64,000 nucleotides of DNA from an uncultured delta proteobacterium (GCA_963845195.1 CAWJRH010000004.1:1638104-1702103); one strand, 5' to 3'. Positions 1 through 17,031 are shown, counted from the first letter of the stretch. Numbers and translations: made by a program. Notes: generated by a model not told the origin, from the letters alone.

Positions 1-158
1 AGGACCACCGTCGAGGGATAGATCCCCTCCGACAGGTCGAAGAACTCGAACTGGACTTCGTTGAGCTCGAGGCCAACACGGTATTCGGGCGCCTCGCCGC
101 ACGCCCAGACGAGCATCAGCAAACCGATAGCAGCGCGCTTAGTAAGTGAATTGCACAT
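1..158 (-). CDS. putative lipoprotein, N-terminal part only (gene runs off the window start)
   Basis: The minus-strand ATG at 158 opens MCNSLTKRAAIGLLMLVWAC|GEAPEYRVGLELNEVQFEFFDL..., a signal peptide with a lipobox-like VWAC. The frame stays open to position 1. The start overlaps the last codons of the upstream GH-barrel gene. It is absent from the ORF track because it is under 60 aa in this window. Confidence 0.4.
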   Translation of the reverse strand, partial: MCNSLTKRAAIGLLMLVWACGEAPEYRVGLELNEVQFEFFDLSEGIYPSTVV

Positions 159-3100
159 AAGTTTTGATTTCCCATTCGCGACCTTTCCGGCCCGGGTCGG
201 CCGGATCGTATAAGTATCGATTGGAGAAGCGATTCAAGTTGCGGAACTGACCCGCCACCCCGAACCGCGTCGCCGCAGGCGCGTAGAGCGCGGGCGGCAT
301 ATAGGCATACGATAGATCGATGAGCACTTGTAGCGGATAGGTGAGGTTGAAGTCCTTGTGGTAGTCGTAGGGACCCCAGTCGTTGAACTTGAGGAAGTAG
401 TTCGCGGTGAACGAGCCGAGCGAGTACCAGCCATAGGTGCCGAATCGGGAGACGGTACGGGGGTTGTCGCCATTGGCCTGCCCCTGCCCCGCGTAGACCC
501 AGTTCACCAGGCGCATGTTGTAGGTGAAATTCACAATCGTGCGTGCGCTGAGGTCCCAGAGGTTTCGCGCAGGAGCCGACGACGGAAACGCGAAGAGGAA
601 GTCGGGGCCCACTCCGGTGTCGGGCACTCCGATTGCAACCGCCGCGTCCTGGGCCGTTGGAAGAATCCTGTACACGAAGTCGAGCGCGACCGACACGTCC
701 GCATCTTCGCGCTGGGCATTGTCCCAAGCGTACAGAGGCGTCTCAGGTGTGGGGTCCCAGCCGACGAGCAACTCGAAGCCGTAGGTCTCTCGATTGGAGC
801 GAACCCAGAACGGGTCAGAGAGCTGGTTCCGCGCTTGCACCCCGGGAAAGTAGAGGCCGGTGTTCGGGTCGAAGGCGTCTGGGATGAATGGGAGCGGACC
901 TTCGAGTGGCCGCTGCGCCAGGAAGTTTGGCGCAAGGATCACCTTGCCCAGGTAGTAGCCAATGCCGGATGAGACCGCCCAGTGATTGCCCTGGCCGCTC
1001 TCTTTGAGCGACCACCCGGTGATGGTCATCGTATTGTCGACGCCGCCGTCGCTGACGAGCCCGCGCATTCCTCCTTGCACGTACCAGAAGAACGGCGCCG
1101 CGTTATAGGTGAGCTTCACCTTGCCGCCGAGGGTATCGGCGAACCGAACCTTGCCGTCGAGGATGATGTATCCCGAGTCGAGATACGAAGGGCCGTCGGT
1201 CTGCCGGGCAGTCTCGTACGACTCGCCGATGAAGTTCGAGCGGCCCGAGATCACCCCAGCCTCGAGCTTGACTCGCTTCGCGGTGTAGCCGAAGAACAGC
1301 GTGCTCTTGCGGCTTCTCGGCTGGGGAATCACGGAGCTCGCGAACGTGTCCGGCAGTCGCTGGGCAAAGTCCTCTTGATGTATGACCGCGAACGCAAAGT
1401 CGCCGAACTCACGGTAATACTTGCCCAGAATCGTCGGGTTGGCGCCCCACCACAGCTCAGGGCCGAACGCAATGGTAAGGCCCTTGATCTTGTCCTTGCC
1501 CGTGAAGGTGAGCCCGATCGGCGCGTTGGCATTGTAGGTATCGATGTCGAACTGCTGATGGACCTCGGGATAGAGGCCAAAGAAGTCCCCCTCGTACCCC
1601 CAGTGGTAGTGTCCCGGACCTCGGAAGAAGCTTTCCAACAGGAAGTACTTGTTGTCCCAGTCAAAGGCTGCCTCGTAAATCTGGAAGCGCTCGCTCAGGG
1701 CTACGACGTTGCCTTCGACATCTTCGAAGCCAACCGGCTGTCCTCGGTCTTCGTAGAAGATCTCGTTGATCGGGTTGAGGGCGACGTTGCCAAGCCCGTT
1801 GATCACGACCTTGGCCCGAACCCCCTGCGTGGGCCGGACTTCCATCCCGAGGTAGATCGACTCGGTATCGCCGAACCGCGTGCTGTCTCGGTCGGGGTCG
1901 TTCAGCTGCCGGCCGCCCGTGGTGAAGGTCTCGAAGTCGACGCGCACGATCGGTGTAAACTTCTCGAGCTTGGCTAGCTTGCTCTGGGTATCCGCTGAGG
2001 AGCGTGGACCAATCCGCCCGAAGTGCTGTCGAATCACTTCGATGTCAGTGCCAGGCGCGTACGGGTCGAGTTCGAACGCATCCTGAAGGACGTAATAGGC
2101 TTCTCGCGGATAGACGCTGTAGATACCACGTGAGTTCGCACGCCCCTTGGACGTGATCCCGAACCACTCCTCGTTCATGTTGTTCTCGCCTTCGACATAG
2201 TCGAATCGATAGGCGTCGTTGCCCCATGACGCCGTATTGTCGTGCACGTCCAGGTTGACTTCCTGGTCGTACTTCCACCAGCCGTCGCTCCACTGGAAGA
2301 TCATGCCGCCGATGGCGTTCTGCACCCTGCCCTTCCCGTAGCTCTGCTCGTAGATCTCCTGCCAAAGAGACTGCAGGTAGAGTGCTTGTGCGACCGGGTC
2401 TTCGATGCCGCGCTTTGCGTCGTACGCATCGGAGCCAAACTCGGCGTACATGAGCGGCACCCCGAGCTCGCTCTCAACGCGCTCGAAGAGGTCTCGCGAC
2501 GAGGCGCCTCGATAGACGTTCGTGCCGAAGATATCGATGTTTGGACTCTCTTCTTTGATCACCTCGAGAAAGCCCAAATCCCCATTGACGATCGCCACGG
2601 GGTGGTTGGAGTCCATCGCGTGGATTTGCTCCGTGATCTCCCCGAAGAGTGAGTAGAGAAAGACCGCCCTCGCGTCGCCCTGTTCTGCTTCGGGCAAGTC
2701 TTCGATCTCGTTCGACTTCCAGTAGAGGCCGTAGTTGTTCTCATTGCCGAGCATCCACATCAGCAGGCCCGGCGTGTCTTTGTACTCCGCAACGAGTTCG
2801 GCAATTTCCTGCTTCACGAGCTCTCGGAAATGCTCATCGGAGTAATCCACGGGGCTCACCCAGACACCGTCGATCGTCATCCCGTAACGACCCACCGCAT
2901 GATTCAACGCGGTGTAGATCCCGTACTTCTCGTAGATGTAGTTGATCCATCTGGCCGGAACGCCAACGTACTGCCGAACGACATTGACCCCCATCTCTTG
3001 GAGGAGCCGCATGTCGCCTTCGAGCGCTTCAACGATGATTTCGTCGGGCTTATTCCAAAAGTTGTAGGTGTAGTTCTGCCCAATCGGCATGTATCCCCAG

Positions 3101-3498
3101 TTCATACCGAAGACCATTGTGGGCTTTCCGTCGACCAGCAGCTGATAGCCCCGCTCGTCCTTGTAGACCTCGACGGAGTTCGGGCCGTCGGTCTTGATCG
3201 GCGCGACCCTGGTGGACCCGGGCGGAGGTGCCGGCGGCCGCGTCGAGGCCGACCCGGACACACTCGGGTCGTCGGGGGCCACGGGGCTTGGCGCCTGCGT
3301 GGGCGGCGCGGGATCGATCGCCCGTGGCGCGTCAGTTCCGGGCTCTTCAGGAGGAAACTCAGACTCGCCGGGTGGAGGAATCGCATTGGGACCGGACGGA
3401 GCGCCCGAAGGCGTCGGCGCCCGCGTCTCTTCTCCGAACTGCTGTGCGGCCGCCGTTGCCGACCAGAATGTGAAGAGGATCACAAGAGCGACTCTCAT
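139..3498 (-). CDS. secreted clan GH-A TIM-barrel glycosidase (GH2-C/GH158-like, family unresolved) fused to a ~600-aa C-terminal predicted outer-membrane beta-barrel
   Basis: Part of ORF 139..3627(-). The internal ATG at 3498 gives the signal peptide MRVALVILFTFWSATAAAQQ, followed by a ~100-aa Pro-rich linker. Glycosidase motifs are LMWMLGNENNYG (candidate acid/base Glu) and PLMYAEFGSDAY (candidate nucleophile Glu). The C-terminal ~600 aa is rich in Gly/Tyr/Asn/Asp with alternating hydrophobicity and an OMP-style terminus KTYVQFTY. Confidence 0.8.
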   Translation of the reverse strand: MRVALVILFTFWSATAAAQQFGEETRAPTPSGAPSGPNAIPPPGESEFPPEEPGTDAPRAIDPAPPTQAPSPVAPDDPSVSGSASTRPPAPPPGSTRVAPIKTDGPNSVEVYKDERGYQLLVDGKPTMVFGMNWGYMPIGQNYTYNFWNKPDEIIVEALEGDMRLLQEMGVNVVRQYVGVPARWINYIYEKYGIYTALNHAVGRYGMTIDGVWVSPVDYSDEHFRELVKQEIAELVAEYKDTPGLLMWMLGNENNYGLYWKSNEIEDLPEAEQGDARAVFLYSLFGEITEQIHAMDSNHPVAIVNGDLGFLEVIKEESPNIDIFGTNVYRGASSRDLFERVESELGVPLMYAEFGSDAYDAKRGIEDPVAQALYLQSLWQEIYEQSYGKGRVQNAIGGMIFQWSDGWWKYDQEVNLDVHDNTASWGNDAYRFDYVEGENNMNEEWFGITSKGRANSRGIYSVYPREAYYVLQDAFELDPYAPGTDIEVIRQHFGRIGPRSSADTQSKLAKLEKFTPIVRVDFETFTTGGRQLNDPDRDSTRFGDTESIYLGMEVRPTQGVRAKVVINGLGNVALNPINEIFYEDRGQPVGFEDVEGNVVALSERFQIYEAAFDWDNKYFLLESFFRGPGHYHWGYEGDFFGLYPEVHQQFDIDTYNANAPIGLTFTGKDKIKGLTIAFGPELWWGANPTILGKYYREFGDFAFAVIHQEDFAQRLPDTFASSVIPQPRSRKSTLFFGYTAKRVKLEAGVISGRSNFIGESYETARQTDGPSYLDSGYIILDGKVRFADTLGGKVKLTYNAAPFFWYVQGGMRGLVSDGGVDNTMTITGWSLKESGQGNHWAVSSGIGYYLGKVILAPNFLAQRPLEGPLPFIPDAFDPNTGLYFPGVQARNQLSDPFWVRSNRETYGFELLVGWDPTPETPLYAWDNAQREDADVSVALDFVYRILPTAQDAAVAIGVPDTGVGPDFLFAFPSSAPARNLWDLSARTIVNFTYNMRLVNWVYAGQGQANGDNPRTVSRFGTYGWYSLGSFTANYFLKFNDWGPYDYHKDFNLTYPLQVLIDLSYAYMPPALYAPAATRFGVAGQFRNLNRFSNRYLYDPADPGRKGREWEIKTYVQFTY

Positions 3499-3600
3499 GC
3501 CGCATGCTCGCCCGTCAGCGTGGTGCGTCTCGCGATCCGACTGTGCATTGGTCCGGAATCTCCCGCTCAAACAGGCGGCGAAGCTGCCCGGTCGTCGAGT

Positions 3601-3619
3601 TTGTTCGAAGAGCGAACCA
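3601..3619. promoter_or_regulatory. candidate operator palindrome TTGTTC-N7-GAACCA in the divergent GH-barrel/ROK intergenic region
   Basis: The sequence ttgttcgaagagcgaacca was read directly. The same TTGTTC-N7-GAAC(A/C)A architecture recurs at 6864-6882. It resembles TTTGTT..AACAAA-type operators of ROK repressors such as XylR. Confidence 0.35.
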
Positions 3620-3733
3620 ACTATCAATTCATCTTCGAAATGTCAACAGCGTCCGCTATTTACCCGATGTTACTCAGTCTTCTCAAACCTCGGAGTCGCT
3701 TGACATTTTTGGGGCGCCAGAATAGTTGGTTCG
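3613..3733. repeat. perfect 12-nt inverted repeat pair CGAACCAACTAT (3613-3624) / ATAGTTGGTTCG (3722-3733)
   Basis: Read directly. Both copies lie in the relatively AT-rich 369-nt divergent promoter region. The right copy overlaps a TTGACA (3700-3705)-N15-AATAGT promoter-like element upstream of the ROK gene. Confidence 0.5.
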
Positions 3734-3867
3734 GACTGCGAACGAAGCAGAGCGAGCGGCATCCGAATGAAAGGCATCCATCAGACCCAAAGCTCCGCGG
3801 CTGCTCCTGCTTGCCTTGGACGAGCGGCGTCCGCCTACTGCAACGCGCCTCGCGCCCGAGGCCAGTG

Positions 3868-5106
3868 ATGTTGCGTTCGAGCCGCGCCACGGGTGAAGTC
3901 CTCGACGCGTCAGCAGTTCGAGCTCAGCACAGCCGACTAATTCTGAATCTGCTCTGGGCAGAACGTGAGATTTCACGGGCGGAATTGGCACGACGCACAA
4001 GCCTCAGCCGCTCGACGGTATCGGCGATCGTGAGCGATCTCCTGGACACGGGCCTCGTCGAAGAGGCACGCACGGGGGTCTCGAACGGCGGTCGGCGCCC
4101 GATCATGCTCGGCTTCCAAGACCAATCGAGCTTCATCGTGGGGATCGAGCTGGGCGCTACACACGTCTCATGCGTGCTCACAGACCTACGGTGCAACGTG
4201 AGAGCCTCCTGGTCTGCACCCGCCCCGGTTCGCGATAATCCTCAGGTCGCGTTGGAGAAGCTCACACTGGGAGTACGCGCCGTGCTGGCGGGGGATGAAA
4301 TCGAACCGTCGCAGCTCCTCGGCTTCGGTGTGGCTGTCCCAAGCCCCGTGGACGATGCGCACCCAGGCGAGCTATTGCCCCTCGTTCTCCCGAAATGGGT
4401 GGGCTACAACATCACCGAGCATCTCCGGAAGAGCTTCGAACGGCCCGTGTTCGTCGACAACGATGCGAACCTCGGCGCCTTGGCCGAGCTGTGGTGGGGC
4501 GCCGGCTCCGAAGGCAACGACCTCGCGTACATCAAGGTGGCAACCGGAATCGGTGCTGGCCTGATCATCAACGGCCGCATTTTTCGCGGGACTGGCGGCA
4601 TCGCGGGAGAGATCGGACACATGTCGATCGACCCGAACGGCGCCCAGTGCATTTGCGGGCTCAAAGGATGCCTCACGACCTTTATCGGTACGCCTGCCTT
4701 ACTGGAGCGCGCCGCACAAGCGTCGCGATCGAACGGCTCCGGGAGCCGCCCACCGCGAACCATCGACGAGTTGGTCGACTCGGCCTTGGCCGGCGACCCA
4801 GCATCCGTGGAGCTGATTCGCTACGCCAGCGAGAAGCTCGGGGTCGGCGTCGCCAATATGCTCAATCTTCTCAACCCGAAGACGGTAGTGCTCGGAGGTG
4901 GCATCGCGCGCGCGGGCGACCTCGTTCTCGAGACGGTCAACCGGACGATTCGCGGACTGTCTCTCCCCGCCTCGATCTCGAAGACCGAGATTCGGACCAC
5001 CGGCCTCAACGAGTGGGGCATCGCGGTTGGGGGTGCGACCCTGGTTCTGCAGAACGCGCTCGAAGCTCCGGCTCTCTTTCCCACTTTGGTGCGAGAAGTC
5101 GGTTGA
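3868..5106 (+). CDS. ROK-family transcriptional regulator (NagC/XylR-like)
   Basis: This is the 3' part of ORF 2830..5106, with the start taken at ATG 3868 (MLRSSRATGEV...). It has an N-terminal wHTH (ISRAELARRTSLSRSTVSAIVSDLLDTGLV), a ROK core (DNDANLGALAE) and a Cys-rich Zn motif (CICGLKGCL). The upstream part of the ORF is antisense to the GH gene. Confidence 0.85.
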   Translation: MLRSSRATGEVLDASAVRAQHSRLILNLLWAEREISRAELARRTSLSRSTVSAIVSDLLDTGLVEEARTGVSNGGRRPIMLGFQDQSSFIVGIELGATHVSCVLTDLRCNVRASWSAPAPVRDNPQVALEKLTLGVRAVLAGDEIEPSQLLGFGVAVPSPVDDAHPGELLPLVLPKWVGYNITEHLRKSFERPVFVDNDANLGALAELWWGAGSEGNDLAYIKVATGIGAGLIINGRIFRGTGGIAGEIGHMSIDPNGAQCICGLKGCLTTFIGTPALLERAAQASRSNGSGSRPPRTIDELVDSALAGDPASVELIRYASEKLGVGVANMLNLLNPKTVVLGGGIARAGDLVLETVNRTIRGLSLPASISKTEIRTTGLNEWGIAVGGATLVLQNALEAPALFPTLVREVG

Positions 5107-5152
5107 CCATCTCCCGCAGGGTAGCCGGCTTGCCGAACCTCGAGCGTGCGCG

Positions 5153-6643
5153 GTGAGCGGTTCTGGTTCGCAGCCGGCGCACTACGAAACGGCTCCAGAA
5201 GACCGAATCTCTTTTGCGCACAAGCTGATCTACGGCCTCGGCGGGCTCGTGAACAATCTCCTCGCCGCCGCGATCGGTGGCATGGTCATCGTATTGAACC
5301 TCGGGCTCGGCATGAGTCCTTGGCTCGTCGGCATGCTTGGCGCTCTGCCCCGGCTGACTGACGCCTTCACCGACCCGCTGATGGGCTACATCTCGGACCA
5401 CACGCGTTCGAGATGGGGCCGGAGACGCCCGTACATCTTCGTGGGTGCCATTGCCGCAGGCCTCATCTATGCCCTGCTTTGGCAGCTACCCGAAGGACGC
5501 AGCGAGAGCTTCTACTTCTGGTTCTTCCTCGCCGGATCGCTCGTCTTCTACTTGGCGTACACGGTGTTCGCGACGCCATGGGTCGCCCTCGGCTACGAGC
5601 TCACCCCCGACTATCACGAGCGCACCCGATTGATGGGCGTCCAGAACTTCTTCAGTCAGCTGGCCTACGTGATCTCCCCCTGGTTCTTGCTGGTGATGCA
5701 GTACGAGCCGTACTTCGACAACATGGTGACTGGCGCTGCGGGCCTGGCCATTGCGATCGGCTTGCTCACCGCGGTGGTGGGCGTCTTGCCCGCGATCTTT
5801 CTGAAAGAACCGTTCAACCCTGAAGCAATTGCCGAGCTCGACCAACACGACAGCGCCCTTGCCACCGGACCAGCCGACAAGATGTCCCTCGTGGACAGCA
5901 TGCGCGACTTCTTCAAAGGCTTCGCCGCGACGCTTCGCTTTCGGCCCTTCCTCAAGCTGTGCGCGGCAACCTTCCTGGTGTTCAACGGCTTCATGCTGAT
6001 CTCGTCGTTTCAGTTCTACGTGATCATCTACTACGTGTTCGGCGGCGATAAGGTCGCCGGGGCCGAGTACGTTGGCTACTCGGGTACCATCTCGGCCGTC
6101 GCTACGTTCTTCGTCATCGTGTTCATCACATGGCTCGCAACCAGGGTCGGCAAGCGACGCGCGTTCTTCGTGGCGACCGGTGTTTCGGTGATTGGCTACG
6201 GACTCAAGTGGTTTTGCTACGACCCTGAGACGCCCTGGCTGCTCCTCTTGCCTGCGCCGTTGATGGCGTTTGGCTTGGGAGGTCTGTTCACCTTGATGGG
6301 CTCGATGATCGCCGACGTGGTCGACCTCGATGAGCTCAAGACCAACGAGCGCCGAGAAGGCATGTTTGGGTCCATCTATTGGTGGGTCGTGAAGCTCGGG
6401 ATGGCCGCGGCGCTCGCCGGCGGCGGCATCCTTCTCGAAACGACCGGCTTCGACGTTGCACTCGAGGGAGCCCAGACCGACGCAACCCTCCTGTGGATGC
6501 GTCTGTTCGACATCCTGGTGCCGATGATCTCATCGCTCGCGGCCATCTGGATCGTCGCCTCCTACGGACTCACCGAGGCCAAGGCCCACGAGGTTCGGGA
6601 GGAACTCGAGCGCCGACGCGGCGCCGTCCAAGCGGCTCAGTGA
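5153..6643 (+). CDS. glycoside-pentoside-hexuronide (GPH/MelB-like) sugar:cation symporter, MFS superfamily
   Basis: The GPH signature is LTDAFTDPLMGYISDHTRSRWGRRRPY, with ~12 hydrophobic segments. GTG 5153 is the first plausible start after the ROK stop, so the start is uncertain. Confidence 0.85.
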   Translation: MSGSGSQPAHYETAPEDRISFAHKLIYGLGGLVNNLLAAAIGGMVIVLNLGLGMSPWLVGMLGALPRLTDAFTDPLMGYISDHTRSRWGRRRPYIFVGAIAAGLIYALLWQLPEGRSESFYFWFFLAGSLVFYLAYTVFATPWVALGYELTPDYHERTRLMGVQNFFSQLAYVISPWFLLVMQYEPYFDNMVTGAAGLAIAIGLLTAVVGVLPAIFLKEPFNPEAIAELDQHDSALATGPADKMSLVDSMRDFFKGFAATLRFRPFLKLCAATFLVFNGFMLISSFQFYVIIYYVFGGDKVAGAEYVGYSGTISAVATFFVIVFITWLATRVGKRRAFFVATGVSVIGYGLKWFCYDPETPWLLLLPAPLMAFGLGGLFTLMGSMIADVVDLDELKTNERREGMFGSIYWWVVKLGMAAALAGGGILLETTGFDVALEGAQTDATLLWMRLFDILVPMISSLAAIWIVASYGLTEAKAHEVREELERRRGAVQAAQ

Positions 6644-6940: not shown

Positions 6941-9274
6941 ATGAAGTTTATATCAGCTCACCTGGTAGCCGCGCTGGTCGCGGTTGCCGCACTCGCAGGA
7001 TGTGCGAGTGACACCACAAGCTCCGATGCTTCGGGCAGCGTGGCGGTCAGCCTCATCGTCGGAAACACCGACGTGAAGGCGGTCTCGTTCGACGTGACCT
7101 GCGACTCGGGGACCAACCTGAGCGGACAGTTCAACGTCAACGACGAGCAAGATCCGCCGATCTGGTCGACGATCATGGACCTGCCCCCGGGCGATTGCAG
7201 CATCACGCTCACCGCGTCCGACGCGCAGGGCGAAGTCCTCTGCACCGGCTCCGAAGACTTCACGGTCATCGCAGACGAGACCGTCAAGGTGAACGTCGTT
7301 CTACTGTGCCCGGGTGAGGGCGAAGACCCGCTCGGCAACGTCGAGATCGATGCGACCTTCGAAATCGTCGAAGGCAACCTCTGCCCGCGACTCAACTTCT
7401 TCAACGCGGTTCCGGACGAAGTGCCGGCCGAAGGCTCCGACGTGACCGTTCTCGCGAGCGACCCCGATGGCGGCATGCTCTCGATCCTGCTCAGCGCGAC
7501 GGGCGGCAGCTACGCGGACCCAACCGCAGCATCGACCACCTACACCTGTGATGGTGCCGCTGGCACGCAGACACTCTCCGTCACAGTCAGCGACGGCGAC
7601 GCGGCATGCGACAAGAGCAAGAGCTTCGACGTCACCTGCCCCGGCGAGAACCTTTGCGACAACGTCGTCTGTGAAGACGATGGAAACGTTTGCACCGACA
7701 TCGCCTGCAATCCGGCGAACGGCGAGTGCGAGGCCACGAACAACACCAACGAGTGCAACACGGGTGGCGGCGGCGACATCGCCATCAACGGCGGATTCGA
7801 AACCGGTGCGTTCAACGACGGCAGTCCTGATGCGAGCTGGCAGCAGTTCCCGAACGGCGGCACCCAGGCGATCACGACCGACAACCCGTCCGAAGGCACC
7901 TTCGCGGCCAACCTCATCGTACCGGTCCGCACGCAGGGCGCCCCGCCTGTCGACAACCTCATCAAGAACGCCAACCTGCAGGCTGGAAACCTCACGCCTG
8001 GACAGGCGATCACAGTCACTTGGGACATGCGCGGTGAGCTCATCGGCGCGGGTGGCGTCGTATTCGTCGAGCTCTTTTCGGAGTTCGCGGGCGGAGGCGC
8101 GACCGGAGAGATCTACACCGGCGGCCCGATCTTCCCGAACGCAGACTGGGAGTCCTTTACCTGGAACACCAACCTCGGCGCTGACGTCGCCGGCGGCGTG
8201 ACCCTCCAGCTCAAGGTCTCGTGCGGACCGGTCGAAGGCTGTGGCGCGAACGTCTTCTTCGACAACGTAACGATCGTCATCGAAGGCGGACCCGGCGAGC
8301 CCGGCACCTGCAGCGAAGGCATCTGCGTTCCGAACGCGGAATGCACCACCGCCGCAGACTGTCCGGACACCGGCAACGAGTGTGTGGACGCTGTGTGCAA
8401 CGCGGGGACCTGCGGGATCTCCAACAACACCAACGTGTGTGACGGCGGAGCCGGCACCTGCGACGGGCAGGGCAACTGTGTGCCCGACGCAGAGTGCACC
8501 ACCGGGGCGGACTGCCCGGACGACGGCAACGAGTGCACCGACGCGGTGTGCAACGCGGGGACCTGCGGGACCTCGAACAACAGCAACGTGTGCGACGGCG
8601 GTACCGGCATTTGCGAAGCAGGAGCCTGTGAGCCCATCGCTGAAGTCGTTTACTCGCAGGACTTCAACTCGCTCGATGCGGCCAACGGCGGCGCCCTAGG
8701 CGGCGACGGCTGGTTGGTCTTCGGCAACGTGTTCACCGGCGCCGGTGTCTTCAAGTTCGGCTTCGGACCGTTCTCGGCACCCAACGGCGGCCCAGGGTTC
8801 TCGGCAATCGTCGACGACCAGGGCGGCCCTGAGCAGGAACCACAGCAGCTCAGCGTGTACAACGACTACAACTGCTGCCAGTCGACCAACGAGGGCCACT
8901 TCAACGGCACCGACCTGGTCGAGGCCATTGTCCTGCAGGAGCCACGCCCGCTGGGCGCTCCCATCACGGCGTCCGACATCGGCAAGACGTTCACGTTCAG
9001 CTTCGATGCCAAGAACGGCGACATCCAGCCGCCCACCACGGCACGAGCGTTCATCCAGACGCTCATTCCTCCGTCGTTCGGCCAGACCAACTTCGTCGAA
9101 GTTGACATGACCAACATCGGAACCGACTGGAACCGCTACGAGATCTCGTTGGACCTCACGGACCCGGCCCTCCAAGGCCAGATCCTGCAGTTCGGCTTCT
9201 CGAGCAACGCGTCGGACTTCAACAACTCGCAGAACGTCTACGACAACGTCCTCGTGACCTTGTCGGCACCCTAG
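6941..9274 (+). CDS. surface lipoprotein with N-terminal 4-Cys module, CBM4/9-like domain, Cys-rich repeats and a C-terminal CBM-like domain (putative glycan-binding protein)
   Basis: - The lipobox is AALAGC|AS.
- The N-terminal module is shared with genes 9505 and 17032.
- The segment INGGFETGAFNDGS...FFDNVTIV looks like a CBM_4_9 jelly roll.
- There are two near-identical repeats, ECTTAADCPDTGNECVDAVCNAGTCG.SNNTNVCDGG.
- The C-terminal domain AEVVYSQDF... is paralogous to the C-terminus of 17032..19089. Confidence 0.8.
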   Translation: MKFISAHLVAALVAVAALAGCASDTTSSDASGSVAVSLIVGNTDVKAVSFDVTCDSGTNLSGQFNVNDEQDPPIWSTIMDLPPGDCSITLTASDAQGEVLCTGSEDFTVIADETVKVNVVLLCPGEGEDPLGNVEIDATFEIVEGNLCPRLNFFNAVPDEVPAEGSDVTVLASDPDGGMLSILLSATGGSYADPTAASTTYTCDGAAGTQTLSVTVSDGDAACDKSKSFDVTCPGENLCDNVVCEDDGNVCTDIACNPANGECEATNNTNECNTGGGGDIAINGGFETGAFNDGSPDASWQQFPNGGTQAITTDNPSEGTFAANLIVPVRTQGAPPVDNLIKNANLQAGNLTPGQAITVTWDMRGELIGAGGVVFVELFSEFAGGGATGEIYTGGPIFPNADWESFTWNTNLGADVAGGVTLQLKVSCGPVEGCGANVFFDNVTIVIEGGPGEPGTCSEGICVPNAECTTAADCPDTGNECVDAVCNAGTCGISNNTNVCDGGAGTCDGQGNCVPDAECTTGADCPDDGNECTDAVCNAGTCGTSNNSNVCDGGTGICEAGACEPIAEVVYSQDFNSLDAANGGALGGDGWLVFGNVFTGAGVFKFGFGPFSAPNGGPGFSAIVDDQGGPEQEPQQLSVYNDYNCCQSTNEGHFNGTDLVEAIVLQEPRPLGAPITASDIGKTFTFSFDAKNGDIQPPTTARAFIQTLIPPSFGQTNFVEVDMTNIGTDWNRYEISLDLTDPALQGQILQFGFSSNASDFNNSQNVYDNVLVTLSAP
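8339..8640 (+). repeat. two tandem ~50-codon Cys-rich coding repeats
   Basis: The repeats were read from the translation and the DNA. They are near-identical to the repeats on the opposite strand at 17646-18250. Confidence 0.8.
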
Positions 9275-9297
9275 CCAATCGGGGTTCTCACAGTGAG

Positions 9298-9336
9298 GAC
9301 CCGGCCTGTGCACCCCTCCAGGATCCAGGCCGGGTC
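9298..9336 (+). terminator. putative terminator hairpin after the CBM lipoprotein gene
   Basis: GACCCGGCCTG-(17 nt)-CAGGCCGGGTC forms a perfect 11-bp stem starting 24 nt after the stop codon. There is no clear T-tract. Confidence 0.4.
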
Positions 9337-9504
9337 GACTCACTCATGACACGGCGTCAAGTGACGCATGCTGCAGCAGCAGTTCCATCAGGGACTCCAA
9401 CGAAGCAGCCTTACTGAGCGTAGACACGGTGGCGGGGGCAAACGAGCCCACCGCCATCGTGTTTGCCTGATCTTGGGGGAAGTGACTCGCATCTCTCGAA
9501 TTTC

Positions 9505-10653
9505 ATGAATTACTCATTCCTTTTTCTGTCTGCCGCCACGCTCCTACTCGCGACCACGCTTGTCGGCTGCGCCGACGATGCTCCGAGCGAAGAGACCTTC
9601 CGCGGCGTTCGAATCGACCTAGTCATTGGGGATGTCGACGTGCCCGCGCTGACTTTTGATGTCATCTGCGAGGATGGCTTCGAGCTGAGCGGACAGTTCA
9701 ACGTGAACGACGACCTCGATCCGCCCGTCTGGTCCGCGCTCATGGACCTGCCCGTTGGCGACTGCAGCATCACGCTCACGGCGCCCGACGACGAGGGCAT
9801 CCCTATCTGTTCCGGCTCTTCCGATTTCACGGTGCGCCTCAACGAGACGGCGAAGGTCAACGTCGTGCTGACGTGCTTCGTCAACTCGCACGACGAAGGC
9901 GAGCCTGAGTGCGTCACCCTCCCCGACTGCGAGCTGGTCTGGGCCGACGAGTTCAATGGCGATGCCGTGGACCTGACGAAGTGGGAGTTCCAACTCGGCG
10001 ACGGAACTCAGTTCGGCATCCCGCGCTGGGGCAACCAAGAGCTCCAGTGGTACATGTCGAGAAACGCCACCGTGGCAGACGGCGTCTTGACCATCCAGGC
10101 ACGAGAAGAACGTATTGGACGCTTCAACTACACCTCATCGCGTCTTCGCTCTCTCGGCAAAGGTGACTGGACGTACGGTCGCTTCGAGATGCGCGCGAAG
10201 CTGCCGGTAGGGCAAGGCATGTGGCCCGCGTTTTGGATGCTGTCGAGCGACCCCTCAATTTACGGCGAGTGGGCCGCAAGCGGCGAGATCGACATCATGG
10301 AATCAACCGGCGACGACCCGGACAGAATCCTCGCCACGATTCACTACGGCCGCACGGCACCCGAAAACGAGTCTTCTAGCTCCAGCACACGGCTCCCCGA
10401 AGGGGGCGCGAGCGAGTTTCACGAGTACGCCATCGAGTGGAAGGCCGGCCAAATCGACTGGTACCTCGACGGTGAACTCTATGCCACGCGCACTAGCTGG
10501 TACTCGAGCGGCGGGCCCTATCCTGCGCCTTTCGACGTCGACTTTCATCTCCTTCTCAACCTCGCCGTAGGCGGCAATCTGCCGGGCGACCCGGACGCAA
10601 CAACCGTCTTTCCGCAGGACTTCGTCATCGACTACGTGCGGGTCTACCAATAG
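9505..10653 (+). CDS. GH16 endo-beta-1,3-glucanase (laminarinase) lipoprotein with the shared N-terminal module
   Basis: The start is taken at ATG 9505 (MNYSFLFLSAATLLLATTLVGC|ADD). GH16 motifs are WADEFNG and the catalytic ExDxxE in GEIDIMES. The protein ends DYVRVYQ. Confidence 0.9.
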   Translation: MNYSFLFLSAATLLLATTLVGCADDAPSEETFRGVRIDLVIGDVDVPALTFDVICEDGFELSGQFNVNDDLDPPVWSALMDLPVGDCSITLTAPDDEGIPICSGSSDFTVRLNETAKVNVVLTCFVNSHDEGEPECVTLPDCELVWADEFNGDAVDLTKWEFQLGDGTQFGIPRWGNQELQWYMSRNATVADGVLTIQAREERIGRFNYTSSRLRSLGKGDWTYGRFEMRAKLPVGQGMWPAFWMLSSDPSIYGEWAASGEIDIMESTGDDPDRILATIHYGRTAPENESSSSSTRLPEGGASEFHEYAIEWKAGQIDWYLDGELYATRTSWYSSGGPYPAPFDVDFHLLLNLAVGGNLPGDPDATTVFPQDFVIDYVRVYQ

Positions 10654-10655
10654 AG

Positions 10656-11711
10656 ATGATGCGACCAATGCCTCTCGCCGCAATCGCGGTCACTGTCGCC
10701 GGGTGCCACTCGGCACCCGACGAGACGCGCACCACTATCGATGCATCACGTGAGCAAGCACCCAACGGATTGTTGGCCGGAGAAGTCATGGCAGTTGCGT
10801 ATTCGGGCTTTCGCGAGGGCCAGTACCCAGATCGAGGCGACGGTGCGGTGAACCCGAGCCCGGAAGAAATCCTCGAGGACCTCGAGCTCCTCGTCGCTCA
10901 CGGGTTCAGGCTCATCCGCTTGTACGATTCGGGCGACAACTCGTCATTGACCCTGGAGCTCATCAGGAAACACCGACTCCCGATCAAGGTGCTCCTTGGG
11001 ATCTGGCTCGAGGCGGAGGTCAGCAACCACGAAGGCTGTCCGTGGCTTCACGAGCCGATTCCCGAAGAGGCGCTGGAGGCCAACACCTGGGCGAACGCGG
11101 CCGAGCTTCGACGCGGGATCGCGCTCGCGCGGCAATTCGAGGACGTCGTGGTCTCGGTGAATGTGGGAAACGAAGCCTTGGTCGATTGGAACGATCATAT
11201 GGTGCCGGTCAAGAAGGTGATAGCCTACGTTCGCCTCGTGAAAGCCGCTGTCGAGCAACCCGTCACGGTGGCTGAGAACTACGCCTGGTGGATACGCGAC
11301 GGTGCTGCACTGGCAGCCGAAGTGGATTTCCTGGGTGTGCATACGTACCCAGAGTGGGAGGGCAAGACCATCGATGAGGCCCTCCCCTATACCCTCGAAA
11401 ACATCGAAGGTGTTCGGCAGGCGCTACCCGACAAACAGATTGCGATCCTCGAGGCGGGCTGGGCAACCACGGCAGTCGAGTTCGGTGACCGGGCCAACGA
11501 GGCGAACCAGGCGCGCTACTATCTCGAACTCGAGGAATGGGCCCGGAGCACGAACACGACCGTGTTCTTCTTCGAGGCATTCGACGAGCCGTGGAAAGGC
11601 GAGGCGAACGCCCCGCTCGGCGCCGAGAAACACTGGGGACTCTTCAACGTCGATCGAACGCCCAAAGAGTTCCTTCGCACGCGGTCGAACGCAGACGCCG
11701 AAGCACGCTGA
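10656..11711 (+). CDS. GH17-family beta-1,3-glucanase/transglycosylase, lipoprotein
   Basis: The lipobox is TVAGC. GH17-type motifs are VSVNVGNEALV (acid/base) and AILEAGWAT (nucleophile position, equivalent to ETGWPS), followed by FFFEAFDEPWKG...KHWGLF. Confidence 0.85.
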   Translation: MMRPMPLAAIAVTVAGCHSAPDETRTTIDASREQAPNGLLAGEVMAVAYSGFREGQYPDRGDGAVNPSPEEILEDLELLVAHGFRLIRLYDSGDNSSLTLELIRKHRLPIKVLLGIWLEAEVSNHEGCPWLHEPIPEEALEANTWANAAELRRGIALARQFEDVVVSVNVGNEALVDWNDHMVPVKKVIAYVRLVKAAVEQPVTVAENYAWWIRDGAALAAEVDFLGVHTYPEWEGKTIDEALPYTLENIEGVRQALPDKQIAILEAGWATTAVEFGDRANEANQARYYLELEEWARSTNTTVFFFEAFDEPWKGEANAPLGAEKHWGLFNVDRTPKEFLRTRSNADAEAR

Positions 11712-11732
11712 GCGCGAGCACTCTCGAATGAT

Positions 11733-12497
11733 TCATTCGACCAACACGACCGAGCCGAACAGGCCCGCGTCGATCCAGCCGCGGTCCTTCTTGTCCCCGG
11801 GCGCCGACTCAGAGCCAACGAAGTTCTCGCGGAGCTCGCTGCCGTCGTTGTCGCAGTAGGCAAGCATCAGGCCTATCACTTTGCCAGGCACCAGCTTGAC
11901 GGGTTCGTTCTTGTCGGAACCGTCGACGTAGTCGTCTGCGTAGATGTCGATTGCGACCTCCCAGACGATCTTGTTGCCGTACTGCCGCCAGCGGCTCTGA
12001 ACGTGATGCGAGTAGCTGTGGGGCGCCTTGTCGGTACCGATGTCGATGGCCTGGTTGTCGAGCGACACGTGATAGGCGAACGCGTTGTGGTTGTATTGGT
12101 GATCGCCGCCAGAGTAGTCCTCGTCGACGAAGACCTCGAGACAGTCGTCATCCCAGTACTGGACGAGCGGGTCACGGTGGCTGTCGAACAAGATGTCGTC
12201 GACGAACTCGCCGAGAATGTAGATGCGCTCCGAAGTCCAGACCACCTTGAAGCGGCCCTGAAAATCGGTCTTCGAGTACTCCGGGCCGAGCCAACGGTGC
12301 GTGAGCGCCTGCCAGCGAGCGCGCTTCCACACGGCCTCGTCCGCCACGCCATCGACCGTGGGCGCCTGCCGGGCGCGAGGCGCGCGATACTCGGTGCGCC
12401 CCGGGTAATGAGTGGAACCCTTCGCGAAAGCGAGAGGTGTGGCACACAGCCCAAGCGCCGCAAGCGCAACGCACAACATGGCGCCCACACGAAGCAT
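11733..12497 (-). CDS. secreted CBM9-like carbohydrate-binding protein
   Basis: It has a signal peptide ending LAFA|KG. The segment PTVDGVADEAVWKRARW...FKVVWTSERIYILGEFVDD...WDDDCLEVFVDEDYSGG matches the CBM9/DOMON-like pattern by eye. Confidence 0.6.
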   Translation of the reverse strand: MLRVGAMLCVALAALGLCATPLAFAKGSTHYPGRTEYRAPRARQAPTVDGVADEAVWKRARWQALTHRWLGPEYSKTDFQGRFKVVWTSERIYILGEFVDDILFDSHRDPLVQYWDDDCLEVFVDEDYSGGDHQYNHNAFAYHVSLDNQAIDIGTDKAPHSYSHHVQSRWRQYGNKIVWEVAIDIYADDYVDGSDKNEPVKLVPGKVIGLMLAYCDNDGSELRENFVGSESAPGDKKDRGWIDAGLFGSVVLVE

Positions 12498-12536
12498 GCC
12501 TCGACCTAGGTGCTCCGTCCGCTCCGCTCGACGGCG

Positions 12537-13511
12537 TCAGACAAACTTCGGCTCGCCTTCCTCGTTCCAGAGTCCCCAGTAGGCTCCGACATCACCCTCA
12601 TCGCTGGTCTTCCAGGTTTCGTCGAAGGCCGAGAAATAGAACACCTCAATGCCGTCGGCGTTGGCCCATTGATAGGTCCTGATGAAGTACTCGAGCGCAG
12701 CGTCGTAGGACGGCACGGCGGCACCGAAAGCGGACCCCGAAGTAGGCCAGCCCGTTTCACTGATGATGACTGGTTTTCCATCGGCTACGTTTTGCGCGCG
12801 TCGATACATCTCTTTCATATACAGCAGGGCATATTCCGCAGGACAGCTCTCCCAGAACGGATAACAGTTGACCAGCAGCGTGTCGCAGGCCGCAGACACG
12901 CGGGGGTGGTTCTCGAAGAGGAAGTAGGCATCGACGGTCCCCACGGGAACACCGGGGACCGAAGCCTTCGCGCGTTCGATGTACTGGATGAGCTGCGTTT
13001 CGGTGAGGTCTTCGCGAAGCATGACTTCGTTGCCGACCGCGAGAATGTCGGCGTGCCCCGCCCGGGCAACCTCGATGCCATTGCGTAGCTCGACTTCGTT
13101 CGCGTCCAAATCGCCCGACAGGCTGATTCCCACCATCGTCCGAAGCCCGAACTCACGCGCGATACGAGCCGTTTCCTGCTGTCCGTCGATGCATGAGAAA
13201 CTCCGGACCCACCGCGTGTACGGCGCGATGATGCTCATCCGTCCGCGTATCTGGTCGGCGCCGATATCACGCCCAGGAGCCTGTCCCGGCAAATACGGGC
13301 TGAAGGACATGCCATGGATCTTGTGACGCAGGATCGTCTGAAGGAGCGCCACCTTCTTCGCACGCGACATCTGTGAGAAATCGGTACCGAGAAGCCCCGG
13401 AAACCCCGGCAGCTTATAGCCGGAACGTCGGAACGCCACGGCAGCGCTCGACAGGGAGCTGACTGAGAACTCTTTGTGGTTGACTCCGGACACGATTCTC
13501 GCGTGGTGCAC
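12537..13511 (-). CDS. GH17-family beta-1,3-glucan hydrolase/transglycosylase without detectable signal peptide
   Basis: Motifs are ILAVGNEVML, the canonical VIISETGWPTSG, and FYFSAFDETWK...YWGLW. No hydrophobic N-terminal segment appears for any candidate start (M1 or the internal MSRAKK). Confidence 0.85.
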   Translation of the reverse strand: MHHARIVSGVNHKEFSVSSLSSAAVAFRRSGYKLPGFPGLLGTDFSQMSRAKKVALLQTILRHKIHGMSFSPYLPGQAPGRDIGADQIRGRMSIIAPYTRWVRSFSCIDGQQETARIAREFGLRTMVGISLSGDLDANEVELRNGIEVARAGHADILAVGNEVMLREDLTETQLIQYIERAKASVPGVPVGTVDAYFLFENHPRVSAACDTLLVNCYPFWESCPAEYALLYMKEMYRRAQNVADGKPVIISETGWPTSGSAFGAAVPSYDAALEYFIRTYQWANADGIEVFYFSAFDETWKTSDEGDVGAYWGLWNEEGEPKFV

Positions 13512-13541
13512 ACCACGCCCCAGCGCCGGACATTAGCACGC

Positions 13542-13561
13542 CGGTTCGCCTGATTGAACCG
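13542..13561. promoter_or_regulatory. inverted repeat CGGTTC-N8-GAACCG upstream of the cytoplasmic GH17 gene
   Basis: Read directly in the 65-nt gap between the GH16 stop (13577) and the GH17 start (13511). The half-site GGTTCG/CGAACC also occurs in the 3601-3733 region. Confidence 0.3.
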
Positions 13562-13576
13562 TGAAACTTCGCGCGT

Positions 13577-14986
13577 TCAGTCTGACGGGTCGACCCGCCT
13601 ATAGACCCTGACGTAGTCCACAAGCATCGTCTGGGGATAGGTCTCGGTGCCCGTGGGCGGTTGGTTGTTGCTGCCCAGTGTCCCGCCCATCGCGACGTTG
13701 AAGATCATGTAGAACTCTTCGAGGAACTCGCTCATCGTCTCTGGATTGATCGACTTGACAAAGTAAGTAATCCCGTCGATTTTGCCGACGATCTTGCTCT
13801 CGTCCCATTCGGCCCCGAAGAGGTGAAAGTCATCGCCAAGTGAGGTGTCGAAGGACTTGTTGGCGCTGACGAAGACCCGCCCTTCAGGAAACGAACAGGT
13901 CTCCGGAGCCTGGATCGACTCGTCGCACCAGTGGATCGTGAAATGCGTCGTTCTCTCGTTTGAGAACGCGTTGTGAAGCTCCATGAAGTCGATTTCGCCC
14001 GAGCGTGGCCACCCCACGGTCGGGAAGTTCGCTCCGAGTGCCCAGAACGCGGGCCACGCGGCCCTCCCAACGGGGGCCTTGATCCGGGCCTCTACTTTGC
14101 CGAACTTGAAATTGACCTTGTTGAGGGAATTGATCTTTCCTGATGTAATCGTTCCATCGCGGACACCGCAGGGCGGCGCAGGACACAACGCGGAGAGCAC
14201 CAGGTTGCCATCTTCGACGCGCACGTTGTCTGGCGACTCCGTATAGAGCTGCCACTCGTTGTTGCCCCATCCTTCGTTGCCGTATCCGGTCTCGATGGTC
14301 CAGTTGGTCGGATTCGGAGCCGTTCCCGAATCAAAGCCATCCTCGAAAACCAGCTCGTACTCGACATCGCTTGGCGGGCAGCCGTCTGACTGCGTGATCC
14401 CGTCGTAGTAGAATGTCCAGTCATCCGGATCGTTGCCCGCATCGCCGGTGACTCCCAGGTCAAAGATGACCGTGATTGCCGTAGCTTCGTCCCCGTCGGT
14501 GCCATCCGCGAAGTCGAAACATAGCTCTTCCCAGGCACCGCTCCCGCCATGCGCGGCCGGTCGCTCTTGCTCCAACCCCTCGAGCTTGAACAGTACGTCT
14601 GCGGGACGTGTGGACCAGACCTTCATCGTGAAGGCCGTGCCCGACCCCCAATCGACCGAATCGTCGAGCATGAGCGTGCTTCCGCCAAACACCTCGCCGG
14701 GGAATTTCTGCATTCTTGCAGCCTTGGGCGTCGCGTTGATTCCGCTCGGATCGGGATTGTCGACCACTCTCGACACGCCCCCGCCGAAATCAACGAAGGT
14801 GAACGGACCGCACGCGTCCTCGAACTCGACCGCGTCTGCGCAGTTCGCTGGTGGGGGTTCAGGGCGCTCAGGGCGCTCAGGCTCCTCGGTGGAGCCGACG
14901 CTTTCGTTGCTACAGCCGACCAAGCCGGCAATCAGCAAGAGAGAAACGCACACGCGCGGAAGCGGCGAGCGGTGTTTGGTGTACAT
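13577..14986 (-). CDS. GH16 endo-beta-1,3-glucanase (laminarinase) lipoprotein with an N-terminal CBM-like domain
   Basis: The lipobox is IAGLVGC|SNE. A ~170-aa beta-sandwich-like N-terminal domain precedes the GH16 catalytic ExDxxE in GEIDFMEL. The protein ends DYVRVYR. Confidence 0.9.
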   Translation of the reverse strand: MYTKHRSPLPRVCVSLLLIAGLVGCSNESVGSTEEPERPERPEPPPANCADAVEFEDACGPFTFVDFGGGVSRVVDNPDPSGINATPKAARMQKFPGEVFGGSTLMLDDSVDWGSGTAFTMKVWSTRPADVLFKLEGLEQERPAAHGGSGAWEELCFDFADGTDGDEATAITVIFDLGVTGDAGNDPDDWTFYYDGITQSDGCPPSDVEYELVFEDGFDSGTAPNPTNWTIETGYGNEGWGNNEWQLYTESPDNVRVEDGNLVLSALCPAPPCGVRDGTITSGKINSLNKVNFKFGKVEARIKAPVGRAAWPAFWALGANFPTVGWPRSGEIDFMELHNAFSNERTTHFTIHWCDESIQAPETCSFPEGRVFVSANKSFDTSLGDDFHLFGAEWDESKIVGKIDGITYFVKSINPETMSEFLEEFYMIFNVAMGGTLGSNNQPPTGTETYPQTMLVDYVRVYRRVDPSD

Positions 14987-15148
14987 GAAAAAACTCCAAG
15001 GAAACGTGCAGCCAAGAGCATAGTTCTATTGCCCGGTCGGGGTAGCCCCACGGCCACCCTTTTCCAAGCAAACTCAGGCTTTTTAGGCCAAATCCACAGT
15101 ACGAGAGATGGGCCGCGTCGTACAGGACGCCGTGCTAGGCAGTAGCCG

Positions 15149-16975: not shown

Positions 16976-17031
16976 CGGCCAGCAGAAAGACACATGGGAA
17001 CCCGTCCTTCGCCGGCCGAAGCCCTGCCGGG

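Follow-up and report, generated by a model that had tools for sequence, protein, structure and literature searches.

In a 64,000-nucleotide stretch of DNA from an uncultured delta proteobacterium (GCA_963845195.1 CAWJRH010000004.1:1638104-1702103; hereafter the window), a gene on the minus strand encodes a protein of 1119 residues in which a GH158-like glucanase domain is fused to a predicted outer-membrane (OM) β-barrel, and this gene lies in a conserved locus for the catabolism of laminarin-type β-1,3-glucan. We propose, with a probability of roughly 0.55, that the fused gene provides the OM component of a glucan locus that operates independently of SusCD and TonB, where the barrel would be the channel by which glucan enters and the tethered endo-glucanase would work at what is likely the periplasmic mouth of that channel.

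Architecture of the fused protein

A six-frame listing of open reading frames (ORFs) gives a single long minus-strand frame at 139..3627, and initiation at the ATG at 3498 yields the 1119-residue product. This start is preferred because the homologues and a database copy of the protein (P0001; 100% identity, 100% coverage, equal length) agree with it. The open frame continues for 43 codons upstream, to a TTG at 3627 (window 3499-3627, minus strand), but these codons are without signal-peptide character. A word-indexed search returns at least 4,236 homologous protein clusters at E ≤ 0.001, and among the matches listed nearly all are 1,000-1,130 residues long with 90-100% query coverage; an alignment of 63 family members has 149 invariant columns at a mean identity of 50%. 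This breadth of nearly full-length homologues, together with the invariant columns, argues that the gene is not a chance ORF.

The first-pass annotation, made from the sequence, had described a polypeptide of four parts, i.e., a signal peptide, a proline-rich spacer, a clan GH-A domain with a pair of glutamates and a C-terminal β-rich region of about 600 residues that it took for an OM barrel. Motifs, ORF and structural model all agree with this layout (Table 1), with GNENNYG at residues 251-257, YAEFG at 351-355 and YVQFTY at the C-terminus. The full-length AlphaFold model has a predicted local distance difference test score (pLDDT) of 82.5 and a predicted template-modeling score (pTM) of 0.77. 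The N-terminus reads MRVALVILFTFWSATAAA up to the QQ that follows the cleavage site, with a positive start, a hydrophobic core and an AxA cleavage motif, and homologues from other phyla carry equivalent signal peptides, likewise of the non-lipoprotein type. In the spacer, proline accounts for 28% of residues 21-105, and pLDDT is below 50 across residues 13-96 of the model. Homologues beyond Myxococcota align only from residue ~107; the spacer is absent from them, and the signal peptide abuts the enzyme domain.

Residues ~105-480 form a (β/α)8 barrel in the AlphaFold model, whose best Foldseek matches are GH158 enzymes (9p26, 6pal; E 5e-13), then a GH157 laminarinase and then GH2. The profile of the 63 family members, compared with the PDB, ranks BuGH158 (6pal, 2.8e-7) and GH158(Pro) (9oro, 7.5e-7) above the GH2 enzymes, while Pfam gives only a sub-threshold match to the GH2 TIM barrel (GH2_C, residues 157-261). 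N252-E253 and E353 are invariant in the family alignment, as are R175, Y329 and W403/W407, which we take to resemble conserved signature positions of clan GH-A. In the HMMER alignment, N252-E253 and E353 fall on N114-E115 and E198 of the 6pal chain, which with the 22-residue construct offset are N136/E137 and E220 of BuGH158, residues whose mutation abolishes activity (PMC7157763). Because the invariant N252-E253 and E353 align with these catalytic residues, the domain is predicted to be a catalytically intact retaining glycosidase near GH158, but a distant one, and the two glutamates singled out by the first-pass annotation stand as conserved, predicted catalytic positions.

Judged by its sequence, the enzyme domain appears to be a deep branch near GH158. 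It shares with the GH158 enzymes (BuGH158, 6pal; GH158(Pro), 9oro/9p26) the clan GH-A TIM barrel, the NE and Glu at equivalent positions and an occurrence in laminarin loci, and differs from them by an identity of only ~15% to the solved structures and by long extra loops in the TIM barrel. Identity to the canonical GH158 of its own locus, 12 kb away, is 25% (E 3e-13). The C-terminal immunoglobulin-like domain of GH158, which shapes the active-site cleft in BuGH158 (PMC7157763), is absent, and after residue ~480 its place is taken by the helical linker and the 600-residue membrane barrel. Homologues carry the names 'hypothetical', 'beta-galactosidase' and 'GH2 TIM barrel-domain protein', of which the latter two are probably misleading.

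For the C-terminal region, the full-length model gives 26 DSSP strands of high confidence (residues 514-1118) in a strict next-neighbor hairpin topology, with turns of 2-3 residues all on one side and long loops on the opposite side, with one exception. When averaged over the family, hydrophobicity shows a clear alternation in 22 of the 26 strands, and the final strand has hydrophobic residues at -1, -3 and -5, i.e., a C-terminal β-signal. The generic features of an OM barrel assembled by the β-barrel assembly machinery are thus found together: signal peptide, an even number of antiparallel amphipathic strands, sidedness of turns and loops, and β-signal. A model of the barrel by itself (residues 485-1119; pLDDT 72.7), built from an alignment of 15 sequences versus 63 for the full-length protein, has 384 Foldseek matches in the PDB at E ≤ 0.001, with E-values down to 5e-11. 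The best 50 of these are all OM barrels, i.e., OprC, BtuB, FepA/PfeA, ZnuD, Cir, PirA, ChuA, MOMP and AlgE, and no soluble sandwich or propeller is among them. Neither this soluble alternative nor a lack of conservation at the two glutamates, the two findings that the first-pass annotation had named as contradicting it, was thus observed.

From this we infer that the C-terminal region forms a closed OM barrel, predicted to have 24-26 strands. A soluble β-rich domain, composed of sandwiches, a propeller or a β-helix in a secreted multidomain glucanase, would account for the low TM-scores to real barrels and gains some room from the fact that closure of the barrel is itself a reading of the model, although such low scores are as expected if the strand number is unlike that of any solved barrel. 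We regard a soluble domain as highly improbable, given the absence of soluble folds from the top 50 matches, the alternation of hydrophobic and polar residues typical of membrane strands, the next-neighbor hairpins with one-sided two-residue turns, the β-signal and the lack of any Pfam domain match.

Placement of the enzyme and the long loops

Strand 1 is expected to start at the periplasmic rim, given an even number of strands, a periplasmic C-terminus and short turns confined to one side; the default place of an N-terminal extension is consequently the periplasm. On balance the barrel topology favors an enzyme at the periplasmic side. This is in agreement with two further observations, i.e., that barrels without an enzyme keep the long loops, so that these loops are intrinsic to the barrel, and that the linker between enzyme and barrel is only 20 residues long in this clade. 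Most family members have a distance of 26 residues from F493 to strand 1, versus 20 in this clade, and the linker sequence is poorly conserved. The first-pass annotation had envisaged a polymer being cleaved at the cell surface and its products passed directly through the barrel; surface cleavage finds no support in the barrel topology, which puts the attachment of the enzyme on the periplasmic side.

Surface display of the enzyme is accordingly doubtful, and we consider rather unlikely the specific arrangement in which the protein resembles an autotransporter, with the linker helix passing through the lumen, the enzyme seated outside on the long loops and the products fed into or past its own barrel. 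Such an arrangement would fit the sequence of enzyme, helix and strand 1, which is the order of type Va autotransporters, as well as the constancy of the 26-residue linker in most of the family and the high conservation of the long-loop side next to variable periplasmic turns. Furthermore, the two domains should be arranged in a defined way relative to each other, given the pTM of 0.77, and several conserved loops lose confidence when the enzyme is omitted from the prediction (residues 628-659, 682-686 and 1043-1048 in the barrel-only versus the full-length model). We set this loss aside as a sign of contact with the enzyme, as it may only mirror the shallower alignment, and as barrels without an enzyme keep the same loops, which are therefore not primarily a docking site. 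A 20-residue linker would barely span a barrel with strands of 11-17 residues.

Autotransporter barrels have 12 strands, or 16 in type Vd, and Bacteroidota, in which the present family is abundant, seldom use type V secretion. The likeness to type V autotransporters such as EstA resides in the order of signal peptide, enzyme, helix and C-terminal barrel; the fused protein has no sequence or Pfam relation to them, no autotransporter barrel model matches it, and its barrel, with 24-26 strands in ~600 residues, lies well outside the 12-strand type.

The long loops of the barrel have a high content of W, Y, H, D, E and N, and near-invariant positions make up 27% of them versus 17% of the strands. 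The conserved loops presumed to be extracellular comprise residues 626-660, 682-688, 813-838, 865-904 and 1042-1052 (window ~340-1623, minus strand). Loops that are more conserved than the membrane strands, with short periplasmic turns conserved least, are the reverse of the usual pattern in OM proteins. A further long conserved loop, residues 915-934 (DPTPxT..WDN..EDA), is on the periplasmic side. The barrels that occur without an enzyme retain the signature loops HWGYEGDFFGL, YWGA, DPFxVxxNR, DPTPxT…WDN..EDA and GPYDY. We suggest that the long loops line or constrict a glucan-specific channel and may serve as its specificity filter.

The glucan locus and the partner lipoproteins

Homologous loci were collected in a scan of one genome per species, which confirmed at least 594 of them; distribution and gene neighborhood refer to the best 80 of the 594, with taxa read from record titles, and the neighborhood analysis additionally includes L001, a locus 80% identical to that in the window. 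The conserved neighbors are a regulator of the Y_Y_Y+LuxR or ROK type, a lipoprotein, a GH16 lipoprotein, GH149, GH17, MFS_2 and GH30, joined in some loci by GH3, GH1 or GH81. The GH149 protein is a β-1,3-oligoglucan phosphorylase (match to PDB 6hq6, E=0), and MFS_2 is a conserved neighbor across phyla. This is a conserved catabolic locus for β-1,3-glucan of the laminarin type, and the GH16, GH17, GH30 and GH149 neighbors point to β-1,3-glucan as the substrate of the fused enzyme as well. The first-pass annotation had pointed to an OM glucanase that myxobacteria use against fungi (GluM of Corallococcus) as a precedent; the setting of the locus is laminarin catabolism in many phyla and not antifungal attack by myxobacteria.

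In Bacteroidota the gene order is regulator, fused gene, lipoprotein and GH16 lipoprotein, which corresponds to the susC-susD position of canonical loci. Over about 8 kb, the loci examined contained no SusC or TonB-dependent transporter (TBDT), and positions 1-21 kb of the window contained none either. Large unannotated neighbors were considered as hidden SusC/TBDT proteins and rejected, being AcrB, GEVED, TPR, GH81 and CBM9+DUF5916 proteins.

This context bears on two further explanations. In the first, the barrel would be a mere membrane anchor that holds the glucanase at the OM, or would have an unrelated function, and glucan would not pass through it; here one may point to the channel function, which is deduced rather than observed, and to the occurrence of the barrel family outside glycan loci, e.g., beside type II secretion genes (L082). 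We consider it improbable, as the conserved loci offer no other candidate OM importer, the fused gene occupies the SusC slot, aromatic and polar residues abound in the conserved loops, and a barrel of 600 residues would be a costly anchor where neighboring enzymes use lipid anchors. In the second, the protein would be an exopolysaccharide export porin with a periplasmic hydrolase, comparable to AlgE/AlgL, PgaA/PgaB or BcsC/BcsZ. Synthase-dependent export systems do pair a barrel with a glycoside hydrolase, and AlgE is among the structural matches; the conserved neighbors, however, include no glycosyltransferase or synthase genes and are all catabolic or for import (GH16, GH17, GH30, GH149, GH3 or GH1, and MFS_2), which makes export a most improbable role.

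The gene downstream of the fused gene starts at an ATG at position 158, so that it overlaps the last 20 nucleotides of the fused gene, and the two are read as translationally coupled; its start reads MCNSLTKRAAIGLLMLVWAC, with a lipobox …LMLVWAC. L001 encodes a complete lipoprotein of 202 residues at the same 20-nucleotide overlap, and the 52-codon fragment in the window is 44% identical to it (tblastn). No terminator-like site was found throughout window 1-4000, which fits co-transcription of the two genes, and the surroundings of the fused gene yielded neither a sigma-70-like promoter nor a terminator or inverted repeat. Downstream sequence was usable in 65 loci, and in 32 of these an adjacent lipobox gene on the same strand follows the fused gene; in a further 4 the same Bacteroidota-type lipoprotein is present but fails the strict lipobox pattern, and 19 have no downstream lipoprotein by crude ORF calling.

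The Myxococcota partner is of the C9 type (~200 residues), with the shared motifs DPNNPF and FYxWATAL..PTGENQYYTA, and C9-family lipoproteins also follow barrels without an enzyme in two unrelated contigs (L082, L083). Because of this recurrence, the barrel and its lipoprotein are therefore taken as an ancestral module older than the fusion, to which the enzyme was added. The pairing of an overlapping lipoprotein gene with the barrel, suggested in the first-pass annotation by analogy with SusC/D, thus extends to L001 and to barrels that lack the enzyme.

The Bacteroidota partner is a lipoprotein of 460-1,300 residues with acidic residues after the lipid-anchor Cys, which presumably resemble the surface-export signal of that phylum. 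Homology between C9 and this downstream lipoprotein was considered and rejected, as the signal peptides alone align. The C10 lipoprotein, a second one of Myxococcota (232 residues; L001 13892-14590), is homologous to a domain of the Bacteroidota partner that resembles a carbohydrate-binding module (CBM) (hhalign probability 95.7%, E 9e-9), and this CBM-like domain is repeated within the partner (e.g., L075 11088-12974). For a laminarin locus of Formosa, a 2026 preprint notes a hypothetical protein with CBM103-like modules that are unclassified and may equal the C10-like domain.

In the route that we propose, the GH16 lipoprotein enzymes and CBM-like lipoproteins, presumed to be at the surface, would nick and hold the polymer, and oligosaccharide chains would pass in through the barrel. 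The tethered glucanase would cleave the emerging chains at the channel mouth, making entry effectively one-way without TonB energy. The products would then be trimmed by the GH17, GH30 and GH16 enzymes and imported by the MFS_2 permease, and breakdown would be completed by the GH149 phosphorylase and GH1 or GH3.

Several observations weigh against this assignment of a glucan channel with a periplasmic glucanase. The structural evidence is prediction throughout, and TM-scores to known barrels are 0.3-0.4. The terminal residue, a tyrosine here, is L or I and not aromatic in most family members. The enzyme is remote from GH158, at the identities given above, and its substrate comes from context. 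A helical linker of fixed length right before strand 1 is like the pore-spanning helix of autotransporters, and the variability of the short periplasmic turns is unlike what tight docking of a periplasmic enzyme would lead one to expect. Finally, in 5 of the 65 loci, mostly of Gemmatimonadota, GH3 takes the place of the lipoprotein downstream.

The remainder of the locus extends upstream of the fused gene, and housekeeping genes start beyond ~21 kb in the window. The canonical GH158 (608 residues; window 15149-16975, plus strand) matches GH158(Pro) 9oro at 1e-104 and BuGH158 at 1.7e-58 in phmmer, and has a type I signal peptide and an unexplained C-terminal extension of ~170 residues. The lipoproteins at window 6941-9274 (plus strand) and 17032-19089 (minus strand) have a C-terminal domain of ~190 residues in common with a Gly-rich lipoprotein of 289 residues in L001 (47-55% identity by tblastn; L001 14656-15525 and 19067-20272). 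This domain has no Pfam or NCBIfam match and may be an uncharacterized glycan-binding module. The CBM9-like protein has 254 residues (window 11733-12497, minus strand); in Gemmatimonadota loci, a CBM9_1 + DUF5916 protein of 1,008 residues is encoded just upstream of the fused gene (L019 1973-4999). In L001 the start of the fused gene shares 4 nucleotides with a GH1 β-glucosidase gene (8625-10004), and the counterpart of this slot in the window holds the divergent ROK regulator and MFS_2, so the upstream end of the operon varies between close relatives. The domain content of the Y_Y_Y+LuxR regulator of other loci resembles that of BguR, a laminarin regulator described in a 2026 preprint.

Table 1 Features of the fused protein and its locus, in window coordinates
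Feature	Residues	Window position	Strand	Basis or remark
Whole gene, GH158-like glucanase and OM barrel	1-1119	139..3498	-	ORF, 1119 amino acids; stop codon 139-141
Type I signal peptide, cleavage between AAA and QQ	1-19	3442..3498	-	sequence reading; model helix 2-12
Proline-rich disordered spacer	20-105	3184..3441	-	Myxococcota clade only
Clan GH-A (β/α)8 domain, GH158-like	106-480	2059..3183	-	Foldseek, profile, model
Predicted catalytic acid/base motif	N252-E253	2740..2745	-	invariant in 63 sequences; aligns with BuGH158 N136-E137
Predicted catalytic nucleophile	E353	2440..2442	-	invariant; aligns with BuGH158 E220
Helical linker from enzyme to strand 1	481-513	1960..2058	-	model helices 486-495, 504-513
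Predicted 24-26-stranded OM β-barrel	514-1119	142..1959	-	model, Foldseek, amphipathicity, β-signal
Partner lipoprotein gene, 5' end, C9 type		1..158	-	lipobox LVWAC; 52 codons, runs off the window
ROK-family regulator (divergent) and MFS_2 sugar transporter		3850..6643	+	Pfam ROK 1.8e-54, MFS_2 8e-58
Rest of locus: 777-residue lipoprotein, GH16, GH17, CBM9-like, GH17, GH16, canonical GH158, 685-residue lipoprotein		6941..19089	both	Pfam, lipoboxes, signal peptides

Distribution, related systems and implications

The family is widespread and uncharacterized, and the fusion, which is not confined to Myxobacteria, is kept in at least seven phylum-level groups. The best 80 loci come from Myxococcota, Gemmatimonadota, Bacteroidota, Ignavibacteria, Rhodothermales, Balneolales, Krumholzibacteriota, Latescibacterota, Eisenbacteria and Delongbacteria. 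Among cultured Bacteroidota, carriers are Algoriphagus (e.g., A. kandeliae), Flavobacterium (e.g., F. terrisoli), Chryseobacterium (e.g., C. aquaticum), Cloacibacterium and Bacteroides cellulolyticus; cultured strains of Myxococcus are carriers as well. A profile of the barrel without the enzyme, run as a full scan, gives 540 representatives at 50% clustering, and five stand-alone barrels (P0197, P0205, P0211, P0249 and P0233) are ~590 residues long, with a signal peptide of their own and no enzyme domain. The pairs of stand-alone barrel and C9-family lipoprotein lie at L082 4165-7206 and L083 2296-4636, and the former adjoins type II secretion genes. Other domain arrangements also occur: P0207 (1218 residues) combines CBM4_9, enzyme and barrel, P0094 (1351 residues) has two tandem TIM domains before the barrel, and the divergent P0250 (1123 residues) has a much longer linker between enzyme and barrel.

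Among systems with a large OM barrel, SusC/TBDT proteins with SusD are a close counterpart, sharing the size of the barrel, the best structural matches and, in Bacteroidota, the position of the gene. The fused protein differs from them in having neither plug nor TonB box (no Pfam match to Plug or TonB_dep_Rec at E ≤ 1), with the enzyme fused where the plug would sit and with partner lipoproteins that are not SusD-like; 24-26 strands are predicted versus 22 in TBDTs, and the comparison yields TM-scores of 0.31-0.39 and root-mean-square deviations of 12-17 Å, with significant local 3Di E-values. LptD-LptE, a 26-stranded barrel with a lipoprotein plug, is analogous in being a very large barrel with a co-encoded lipoprotein of ~200 residues, but LptD has no sequence relation to the fused protein and is not among the top Foldseek matches. 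The sugar porins LamB and ChiP, which let specific sugars diffuse through a channel with aromatic-rich loops folded inward, offer another analogy, and a chitoporin is among the Foldseek matches of the full-length model; these porins have 16-18 strands, no fused enzyme and no sequence relation to the protein described here.

Two systems connect a glucanase with a membrane protein. The M. xanthus protein Oar is of the TBDT type. GluM, a myxobacterial OM protein with glucanase activity, has been described as an Oar homologue (PMC6971385); it has no separate GH-A domain, and the fused protein has none of the TBDT features, a separation that follows from the description of GluM and not from its sequence. 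FbGH17b of Formosa is a fusion of GH17 with a major facilitator superfamily (MFS) permease for which the authors propose coupled hydrolysis and transport (PMC6246565). It is likewise a laminarin-active hydrolase covalently joined to a membrane transporter, but resides in the inner membrane with an α-helical permease, whereas the present protein is predicted to be an OM β-barrel. A literature search, with most subscription journals outside its reach, found no description of a fusion between a glycoside hydrolase and an OM barrel. The first-pass annotation was right in setting the protein apart from GluM, which the lack of any match to plug or TonB-receptor models corroborates, and, as far as that search goes, in regarding the architecture as undescribed.

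We rate the fusion family as a glycan-utilization system with a new type of OM component; that its mechanism is categorically new is a possibility we put forward with reserve. The barrel and its partner lipoprotein are unclassified in both Pfam and NCBIfam, since no model in either library matches the barrel, the stand-alone barrels or the partner lipoproteins. To our knowledge, the step of crossing the OM is understood only for SusCD/TBDT systems. GH149 clusters of carbohydrate-active enzymes without susCD-like pairs have been recorded in Bacteroidetes, where the OM transporter was not named (PMC5827456), and the present family is a concrete candidate for the missing OM step in such clusters.

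More tentatively, the family might represent a third class of OM glycan importer beside passive porins and the TonB-powered SusCD/TBDT systems, in which a barrel with its lipoprotein carries a tethered, possibly processive glucanase that, where chains leave the channel, would work as a hydrolytic ratchet, pulling β-1,3-glucan in and trapping it in the periplasm without TonB energy. A ratchet of this kind is conceivable because one GH158 enzyme has been reported to be endo-processive (PMC13195107). Were transport driven or gated by the fused enzyme, this would amount to energy-independent import of a polymer. Should such a third class exist, it could account for the OM step of laminarin clusters described as SusCD-less, since its members occur in Bacteroidota, Myxococcota and Gemmatimonadota as well as in several candidate phyla.

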